From the IMG/VR virus record IMGVR_UViG_2671180296_000011, positions 1 to 23,719 of that record: a stretch of DNA of 23,719 nt; one strand, 5' to 3'. The notes under the pieces are model-generated. The model was not told where the DNA came from, did not search any database, and saw only the letters and a program-made list of their open reading frames with translations. A program made the translations under genes and the position numbers. Shown here piece by piece: positions 18,030-18,912 of the stretch (within the stretch, counting starts at the first letter, position 1; each line of letters begins with the position of its first letter). This DNA is from a virus (lineage: Duplodnaviria; Heunggongvirae; Uroviricota; Caudoviricetes).

Positions 18030-18204
18030 CCAATGAGCTCAAGTAGTTCTCCGCAGATGAAGTGCGTGCGCCGGACACGGATAAACCTCCGGCATGCTCT
18101 TTAACAATCTGGATATTCCTAACCACAAAGAAATCGCATCAATTTGGATTTTGTGGGCAACTTCTCGTGTTGTTCGATGGAGACGCCTATTTTGATCTGT
18201 GTTT

Positions 18205-18564
18205 TTAAGATCGCAATATCTTTAAGTAATGACCAAATATGATCATCTGTTTTTTCAGAGTTTTTAACTGAATTTTCAATTCCGAATCAGAATATTTTTC
18301 TGCATCATCAAAAAGCTGCAAATATTCTGCGGATTTTCTCATGGCATTACCTGACTTTTGTCCGAATCCATAAATCGTTTGGACGGTTGCGATCACAACA
18401 ATAAAAACGCCAGAAATTTCCGGAATGAATCCGCCAATGACAGATGAACCGAGGATAATACTCACTACTGAGAAAAGTTTATCGAGACGACCAGTCGCTA
18501 CAGAAAACAGTTGCTCAAGAAAATAGCCATATAAAATTCTGTCAAGAATATCATCCCGGTCCAT
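18205..18564 (-). CDS. hypothetical 119-aa two-TM hairpin membrane protein in AT-rich insert, antisense to the early-left operon
   Basis: ORF MDRDDILDRILYGYFLEQLFSVATGRLDKLFSVVSIILGSSVIGGFIPEISGVFIVVIATVQTIYGF... with AGGTGA RBS 7 nt upstream. AT-rich DNA. Two adjacent hydrophobic helices flanked by charged helical segments. Confidence 0.5.
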   Translation of the reverse strand: MDRDDILDRILYGYFLEQLFSVATGRLDKLFSVVSIILGSSVIGGFIPEISGVFIVVIATVQTIYGFGQKSGNAMRKSAEYLQLFDDAEKYSDSELKIQLKTLKKQMIIFGHYLKILRS

Positions 18565-18912
18565 ACACCATCACCTGCTTGTGCTCTTTGCTCTGTCATA
18601 TGATTTCCTTGGATCGTTGGGGATATCCAGATTATACAGATTTCCTGTCGTTGGGGAATGACGGAAACCACCTCGCCTGACGTGGTTAAAAGCAGGCACA
18701 CAACACGAAAGCGCACGGCGAAGTTCGTCTCACTGCACGGTGTCGTTAAATTTAATTCGACCGTGCGCTTCCGGTTGTGGCGACCCGCGAAATGGCGCGG
18801 CGGTAAGTATGGCGGGGGTGGGAGGGACGCCTTTCCCCGTTGAGGACACCGGGTTGTCAGGTTGACCATACGCTTAAGTGACAACCCCGCTACAACGCCC
18901 TCTGTTATCAAT

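Follow-up and report, generated by a model that had tools for sequence, protein, structure and literature searches.

The subject of this report is a short antisense cassette located between ydfC and dicF in a 23,719-nt stretch of Caudoviricetes DNA (IMG/VR record IMGVR_UViG_2671180296_000011, positions 1 to 23,719; hereafter the window), in which the immunity genes and early-left operon of a Qin-like lambdoid prophage are found. Judged from its sequence, the copy in the window is a pseudogene remnant of a wider two-gene prophage cassette. It is probably a degenerate copy of a conserved two-gene moron, the intact form of which would serve as a lysogen-expressed membrane exclusion or abortive-infection module. 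The intact cassette is predicted to consist of a translationally coupled small open reading frame (ORF) of 26-52 aa and a gene for an inner-membrane protein of 148-165 aa, which would be composed of an N-terminal helix, a hairpin of two transmembrane (TM) helices and a helical C-terminal domain, with both genes in a fixed antisense orientation. Such a two-gene cassette is apparently otherwise undescribed, and the abortive-infection or exclusion function assigned to it here is a predicted one.

A preliminary description of the window, made from its letters alone, drew attention to a 119-aa protein encoded on the opposite strand behind a good ribosome-binding site. The ORF and its Shine-Dalgarno sequence (AGGTGA, 7 nt 5′ of the start) are real, but the protein is not the native product, being frameshifted from one of 148 aa. 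One base is missing at approximately position 18256, which converts CTGGAAAAAACA to CTGAAAAAACA on the minus strand. Close homologues are all 148 aa long and share the conserved C-terminus WSSLKDIAILKTQIKIG...FLCG, and a 148-aa protein is annotated at this site in the closest genome, OkiPb01678 (99.6% identical). The intact allele matches the 152-position profile phrog_6315 over its full length (residues 2-148, E=2e-22), whereas the product of the window matches only at residues 2-105 (E=1.5e-15). The two adjacent TM helices that had been proposed are located at approximately residues 30-47 and 50-66 of the 119-aa ORF, as judged by hydropathy. On the other hand, the “charged C-terminal helix” of the same description is in part an artefact, because the last 16 residues are out of frame. 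The frameshift removes the last two helices of the family model described below (113-126 and 138-147), and with them D107, A118, and G148, which are three of the six positions that hardly vary in the family. The exact 119-aa sequence (WP_248844398.1) is present in three independent assemblies or runs; thus, the frameshift allele is genuine.

The second lesion affects the region upstream of the two-TM gene. Intact cassettes of Escherichia coli are 119-133 bp longer 5′ of this gene; examples are those of strains GB089 (NZ_CP013663.1 2482982-2483800) and 2013C-3033. The extra DNA completes a 48-52 aa ORF (...HIPEKNIRPKPSPAPSEERGNSNNQTSR) that the preliminary description had overlooked and whose stop codon, in the E. 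coli clade, overlaps the two-TM Shine-Dalgarno sequence. The window shares with its nearest relatives a deletion of 119 bp between CAAGCAGGTG repeats, after which only the first nine codons of the small ORF are left. The loss of these 119 bp from the micro-protein gene and the frameshift at codon 104 of the two-TM gene leave the module in the window most likely inactive. With the conserved C-terminal third lost and the partner ORF deleted, the proposal that the window encodes a small pore-forming or abortive-infection effector does not hold for an intact protein.

The deletion-bearing alleles fall into three groups: three loci (L015-L017) in which the two-TM protein is unchanged; three loci (L001, L028, and L030) with V61D, which lies inside the second TM helix (TM2), together with E104G and Q133H; and the window, with L31F and the frameshift. 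This lineage accounts for approximately five of the 72 nearly complete copies in complete E. coli genomes. All five changes in it are non-synonymous or disruptive and none is synonymous, a suggestive excess that is not significant with five events. The idea that a toxin must be inactivated once the small ORF is lost is regarded as unproven, since L015-L017 retain the wild-type protein. The unchanged two-TM protein of these three loci also implies that the small protein is not an indispensable antitoxin at native expression.

The small ORF itself is hydrophilic and proline-rich, and it ends 3-18 nt 5′ of the two-TM start wherever the upstream DNA is intact and readable. It was found directly upstream in all eight evaluable diverse loci (the singletons L003-L005 and L010-L014), in 18 of 18 loci of the 155/156-aa clade, and in 31 of 37 E. 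coli-type viral loci, the remaining six being five deletion alleles and one locus at a contig edge. Counterparts are present in Polynucleobacter-type prophages (...KDGVPKTHPPRPKVF), Enterobacter (...HMPVKQRPPVPPKED), the prophage Fels-2 (MSDSDNFHVLPRPAPAPKPEPGQDKK), and a Yersinia P2-like phage. The core of the peptide resembles h-x-(R/K)-P-x-P-x-P, and the 155/156-aa clade has PD(G/S)QVPYR as an invariant core. Single-nucleotide codon differences within the 156-aa clade number 850 synonymous to 216 non-synonymous in the frame of the small ORF, compared with 87 to 934 and 47 to 957 in the other two frames. This strong signature indicates a translated and constrained peptide, and on this basis the small ORF is clearly coding. 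The peptides matched no family in PHROGs or Pfam, and no known antitoxin fold or DNA-binding domain was detectable in them. Of three peptides looked up by exact sequence, none was present among 15 billion collected proteins, which indicates that the gene is unannotated.

An exhaustive profile search for the two-TM protein yielded 146 representatives at 50% identity, nearly all of which are stand-alone proteins of 150-165 aa. They come from Enterobacterales (Enterobacter, Klebsiella, Serratia, Yersinia, Edwardsiella, Providencia, and Salmonella) and Polynucleobacter, and all are annotated as hypothetical; a third search at E <=10 gained no weaker matches. Comparisons with Pfam and the PDB were as blank as that with PADLOC. 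Homologues also occur in the deposited genomes of Elizabethkingia phage EKP1 (OM284015.1 33194-33631) and Providencia phage PSTNGR2lys (MW145137.1 10098-10541), one of which is from a host of the Bacteroidota, at 30% identity. An AlphaFold2 model built from 79 sequences is all-helical (helices 3-44, 48-65, 67-86, 93-105, 113-126, and 138-147), with a predicted local distance difference test (pLDDT) score of 94.6 and a predicted template modelling (pTM) score of 0.85; it supersedes a poor model from seven close sequences (pLDDT 56.8). The hydrophobic hairpin is kept across the 79 sequences, and the family has the core architecture of SLATT proteins, namely two adjacent TM helices with flanking helical N- and C-terminal segments.

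The resemblance to SLATT proteins recurs in several comparisons. The family consensus matches NCBIfam SLATT_4 with E=1.3e-4 and 21.9 bits, below the 55-bit cutoff, over the hairpin and the next helix. Among the 79 members, SLATT_4 is matched by 32 (best E=1.2e-5), SLATT_1 by 12 and SLATT_fungal by three, all below threshold, and no unrelated membrane family in NCBIfam is matched by more than three. Foldseek against viral models (BFVD) places SLATT-annotated proteins at ranks 3-5, 7-11, 16, 17, and 24, with probabilities of 0.99-1.0 and TM-scores of 0.5-0.58, although the E-values are only 0.008-0.1; the top matches are described as giant-virus SLATT proteins. No SLATT-like solved structure was found in the PDB. 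In addition, the cluster member P0209 bears the UniRef name “SLATT domain-containing protein.” The SLATT-like hairpin suggested in the preliminary description is therefore backed by the sub-threshold SLATT_4 and SLATT_1 matches, the Foldseek ranking and the UniRef name. Since all profile scores lie well below these cutoffs, we regard the two-TM protein as a remote SLATT-like relative, supported below curated thresholds by profiles and the model, and not as a demonstrated member.

The genomic position of the cassette is conserved: in all sampled contexts but one, in both lambdoid and P2/186-like prophages, the pair is antisense to the repressor-controlled early lytic operon. In the window, it is located between ydfC and dicF/dicB, antisense within the operon as had been proposed. 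In Rac-like prophages of Klebsiella and Raoultella, the pair adjoins KilR, and in Enterobacter and other hosts it lies one or two genes from an S24-type repressor. Polynucleobacter-type prophages show the same antisense placement in the early operon, as do Fels-2, in which the pair lies within apl-cII-fil...A, and the Yersinia P2-like phage, in which it lies within the early operon. In the deposited annotations, Fels-2 STM2733.1 (L089 3414-3818) and gene 008 of Yersinia phage vB_YenM_42.18 (L090 3312-3977) are coding sequences on the strand opposite to the pair, and these are probably mis-called genes. Lambda sieB is likewise a two-TM gene (PF14163) that is antisense between ral and N.

Across divergent cassettes, the approximately 110 nt located 5′ of the small ORF are conserved above the level of the proteins. 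This region, a putative promoter and leader, contains a hairpin, two direct copies of the TCCCCAAC motif, a TATAAT hexamer and the Shine-Dalgarno sequence of the small ORF (Table 1). The two-TM gene is also bracketed by an 18-nt inverted repeat, the left arm of which is an inverted copy of the TCCCCAAC motif at the other end of the gene. At the left cassette edge, a perfect rrn-type boxA-like sequence, GCTCTTTAACAA, is present at 18096-18107 (+); in the 156-aa clade, its complement GTTAAAGAGC is kept just 3′ of the two-TM gene and precedes an intrinsic terminator. An Rfam scan of the cassette found no RNA family beyond chance snoRNA-like matches.

The flanking backbone carries a double hairpin (GCCGGA...TCCGGC followed by CTCCAC...GTGGAG), which was located at 18030-18093 in the window, at 2570-2625 in K-12 (L002) and at 1500-1600 in E. 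coli O157:H7 (L086), and which is thus present in K-12, where the cassette is absent. In O157:H7, as in Klebsiella-type cassettes, ATGGAGG(G/A)TAAAATG and the antisense cargo come after it, so that it possibly acts as a portable 5′ leader. E. coli O157:H7 ATCC 35150 carries another antisense cargo behind this leader between ydfC and dicF, a 61-aa Cys-rich protein (MPNKPCPACN...CPEH...) annotated as hypothetical (L086 1297-1482, minus strand). Because a different ORF is located behind the same double hairpin in O157:H7, the ydfC-dicF interval behaves as a moron hotspot. In a Klebsiella metagenome scaffold (L070, approximately 5560-5640), a further copy of the promoter-like element formed by the 5′-region hairpin and TCCCCAAC follows the terminator of the two-TM gene, which suggests tandem antisense morons with the same leader.

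By analogy with SLATT effectors and SieB, we propose that, while the early operon of a lysogen is repressed, a promoter within the cassette itself would drive its transcription; the two-TM protein would then reside in the inner membrane, where the micro-protein would gate, restrain or assist it. A superinfecting phage would cause membrane permeabilisation, or its entry would be blocked, and the infection would fail. Upon induction of the prophage, convergent transcription of the early operon would silence the cassette and spare the lytic growth of the prophage itself. It is also tempting to speculate, as a possibility that we hold tentatively, that the intact cassette represents an undescribed form of prophage immunity, in which a SLATT-like pore is gated by a co-translated proline-rich micro-protein rather than by a nucleotide signal, in which the antisense wiring lets the prophage's own induction switch the module off, and in which this logic is common to lambdoid and P2/186-like phages of Beta- and Gammaproteobacteria.

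Several observations weigh against a lysogen-expressed exclusion or abortive-infection module. A simple consensus promoter scan of the window gave no full sigma-70 -35/-10 match, and the TATAAT hexamer is not kept outside the E. coli clade. One homologue is located just downstream of Q and not in the early-left operon. L015-L017 combine the micro-protein deletion with a wild-type two-TM protein. No curated SLATT cutoff is reached: Pfam SLATT families gave no match for the protein or the consensus and a match for one of the 79 members at E=0.04, and the NCBIfam scores are far below 55 bits. The PADLOC-DB 2.0 defence models gave no match at E <=10, and the function label of phrog_6315 is “unknown function.” Finally, no SMODS, SLOG, reverse transcriptase or other signal-generating partner was seen in any sampled genomic context; therefore, the usual logic of SLATT activation is inapplicable.

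Other explanations of the cassette can be judged against the same evidence. The two-TM protein might be a toxin and the proline-rich peptide its labile antidote, in which case the module would stabilise the prophage instead of targeting phages. The genes are tightly coupled with the small gene first, and the lineage that lacks the small ORF carries V61D in TM2 or the frameshift, as would fit selection against an unrestrained toxin; however, the wild-type two-TM protein of L015-L017 coexists with the deletion, five changes do not make the disruptive excess statistically significant, and the peptide has no detectable antitoxin fold or DNA-binding domain, so that an addiction module appears unlikely. 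Alternatively, the small ORF might be a regulatory leader peptide and not a partner protein, the ribosome on its proline-rich C-terminus setting translation of the two-TM gene, whose Shine-Dalgarno sequence overlaps or abuts the leader stop. Its stop codon, 3-18 nt before the main ATG and overlapping the Shine-Dalgarno sequence in the E. coli clade, is well placed for such a role, some members contain PPP or PPPP (L003 and L053) in the proline-rich C-terminus, and arrest peptides typically show such conservation of the amino-acid sequence. We nevertheless find this explanation rather improbable, because most members have alternating P-x-P and not consecutive prolines, and the invariant core of the 156-aa clade (PDGQVPYRP) is located 10-15 codons ahead of the stop and not at it.

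For the window itself, it is highly unlikely that the 119-aa product is a functional small pore-forming or abortive-infection effector whose truncation is adaptive and not decay. The N-terminal helix, both TM helices and an intact Shine-Dalgarno sequence are kept, and the allele persists in three independent assemblies or runs. Against this, helices 113-126 and 138-147 and three of the six nearly invariant positions are gone, full length is the rule in phrog_6315 and, fragments aside, in all 146 family representatives, the partner ORF is deleted too, the lineage shows only non-synonymous or disruptive changes (the window has L31F and the frameshift, the sister allele V61D, E104G, and Q133H), and the allele is rare, the deletion lineage comprising approximately five of 72 near-complete E. 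coli copies. Finally, the cassette might have a purely transcriptional role, its convergent antisense transcription damping leaky expression of toxic division inhibitors downstream (DicF/DicB here and KilR in Klebsiella). The cassette is indeed directly upstream, in the sense of the operon, of dicF-dicB in the window and of KilR in Klebsiella prophages, its 5′ region is better conserved than its coding sequence across divergent cassettes, and O157:H7 has another antisense ORF at the same site behind a shared leader. This role is hardly credible, since both ORFs are clearly conserved at the protein level across Beta- and Gammaproteobacteria and two phage families, and no kil-type gene was identified beside the cassette in Enterobacter, Fels-2 or other hosts.

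A membrane exclusion or abortive-infection module, the explanation that we favor, invites comparison with known systems. In CBASS, DRT10, and related systems, SLATT proteins have been predicted or shown to act as membrane effectors (PMC9226505; 10.64898/2026.04.29.721553; PMC11381338). The closest likeness is to SLATT_4 (PF18186/NF033632, a type I CBASS effector), which shares with the two-TM family an N-terminal helix, a two-TM hairpin and a helical C-terminal extension, as well as a location on mobile elements of phage conflict; the best structural matches and the recurrent sub-threshold profile matches point in this direction. The two-TM family differs in having no cyclic-nucleotide synthase, SLOG, reverse transcriptase or other enzyme as a partner, its only conserved neighbor being the micro-protein of 26-52 aa. 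In DRT10 (UG17, composed of a reverse transcriptase, a SLATT protein and a non-coding RNA) and Hailong (a HalA channel and a HalB nucleotidyltransferase), a membrane effector is restrained by a co-encoded product and released on infection (10.64898/2026.04.29.721553; PMC13276650). Restraint of a membrane effector by a co-encoded product would be common to these systems and the cassette, but their regulator is enzyme-made DNA, whereas the cassette has a candidate peptide regulator and no enzyme gene; DRT10, moreover, uses the SLATT_5 family. Lambda RexAB, as is proposed for the cassette, is a lysogen-expressed two-gene module in the immunity region, and RexB is thought to collapse the membrane potential. 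RexB, however, has four TM helices, RexA is a 279-aa sensor, and the genes are co-oriented with cI and not antisense in the early operon; the PADLOC scan revealed no sequence relation to RexAB.

SieB of lambda and P22 (PF14163) provides the nearest analogy in position, as both it and the two-TM family are two-TM inner-membrane proteins encoded antisense in the early-left (pL) operon near the immunity region. Superinfecting phages are aborted by SieB (PMC10461980). [quoted passage not shown] By contrast with the cassette, SieB has no upstream micro-protein partner gene. The likeness is an analogy and not membership, and homology to SieB was rejected: hhalign of the family alignment against lambda SieB gave a probability of 0.3%, and the family has no PF14163 match, whereas lambda SieB matches at E=1e-29.

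As regards the DNA that carries the cassette, the distance from the ydfC stop to the dicF start is 884 nt in the window and 340 nt in K-12 MG1655, which confirms the earlier impression that the two genes are much closer in K-12; an interval of equal length is refuted by the alignment. In the global alignment, K-12 homology ends at approximately 18080 and resumes at approximately 18688. The net extra DNA relative to K-12 is approximately 0.55-0.6 kb, and the insert of 0.7-0.9 kb originally estimated was too large. The segment is AT-rich, as had been noted, with a mean GC content of 39.5% against 48.8% in the flanks and dips to 32-34%. Among 5426 complete E. coli genomes, the segment is present in only 91, nearly completely in 72 of these and always on the chromosome, in contrast to the dicF leader, which is present in 4316 genomes. 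A joined-flank survey of the site across E. coli was uninformative, the ydfC flanks being too diverged for megablast. An IS3-family element replaces the left two-thirds of the cassette and truncates the gene in E. coli O145 RM9872 and in 11 further listed genomes, most of them O145, the upstream third remaining beside dicF (L009 1-1156).

Table 1. Features of the cassette, its 5′ region and the surrounding genes, in positions of the window.
Feature	Position	Strand	Basis or remark
Cassette segment absent from K-12 Qin	18081-18687	-	607 nt in place of 44 nt of K-12 (global alignment, three-way alignment, composition)
Frameshifted SLATT-like two-TM gene, 119 aa	18205-18564	-	residues 1-103 native, 104-119 out of frame; also L31F
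Frameshift site	18247-18258	-	CTGAAAAAACAG here, CTGGAAAAAACAG in intact alleles; one G lost (C on the plus strand, approximately 18256)
Former 3′ end of the 148-aa gene	18119-18204	-	now out of frame; intact alleles encode the conserved WSSLKDIAILKTQIKIG...FLCG tail (translation of L001 and window; alignment)
Small-ORF remnant	18498-18599	-	start and initial 9 codons (MTEQRAQAG) kept, joined out of frame over the two-TM gene start; intact form 48 aa (MTEQRAQAGGGNSTHKTVWDHIPEKNIRPKPSPAPSEERGNSNNQTSR)
Deletion junction	18572-18581	-	single CAAGCAGGTG repeat left, containing the two-TM Shine-Dalgarno; the lost 119 bp lie between two copies in intact cassettes
Conserved 5′ region, putative promoter and leader	18600-18686	-	alignment across divergent cassettes, motif positions
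Shine-Dalgarno of small ORF	18600-18610	-	in conserved 5′ region
TCCCCAAC motif, two direct copies	18650-18660, 18616-18626	-	in conserved 5′ region
Perfect TATAAT	18631-18636	-	E. coli clade
Hairpin ACCAC...GTGGT	18667-18686	-	kept by compensatory changes across cassettes
18-nt inverted repeat (16/18 complementary)	left arm 18106-18123, other arm 18616-18633	+	brackets the two-TM gene; left arm overlaps the native stop codon
Backbone hairpin GCCGGA...TCCGGC	18070-18093	-	common to K-12; in other prophages part of the 5′ leader of antisense cargo
dicC-like gene	16593-16871	-	first in gene order
dicA	16898-17305	+	after the dicC-like gene; followed by ydfA and ydfB
ydfC orthologue, 71 aa	17814-18029	+	59% identity to K-12 YdfC; left flank of the site
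DicF small RNA	18914-18965	+	Rfam RF00039, 73.8 bits; right flank of the site
dicB	19142-19330		downstream of DicF; 55% identity to K-12; followed by a DUF1482 gene and an 823-aa exonuclease

A further ORF of 177 aa on the minus strand (18498-19031) is not regarded as a gene: the small-ORF remnant forms its 3′ end and the remainder runs antisense through the DicF leader, and homologues of it were neither sought nor found. The DicF leader itself contains nested inverted repeats at 18706-18773 (+), with 13-nt arms (18706-18718 and 18761-18773) around a 16-nt palindrome (18735-18766); these repeats are kept in K-12 and may form a structure at which the DicF precursor is processed. Elsewhere in the window, Rfam matches comprise the STnc100 small RNA (4648-4846, minus strand), the sok antitoxin RNA (11776-11950, minus strand), and hence a hok/sok-type locus, and two tRNA genes (5681-5754 and 5859-5931, minus strand).

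The functional interest of the allele in the window is low, and that of the family is moderate to good. For annotation, the micro-protein has been missed everywhere, and in Fels-2 and the Yersinia phage an opposite-strand coding sequence stands over the real gene. SLATT proteins are known as effectors under a co-encoded enzyme, for example a CD-NTase or reverse transcriptase, whereas here the sole conserved partner is an unannotated micro-protein. If the proposed function is true, a compact two-gene system would join the defence repertoire of prophages, and membrane effectors gated by a peptide would gain a tractable example. The antisense placement within the early operon, as in sieB, would then be generalised as a self-sparing design.

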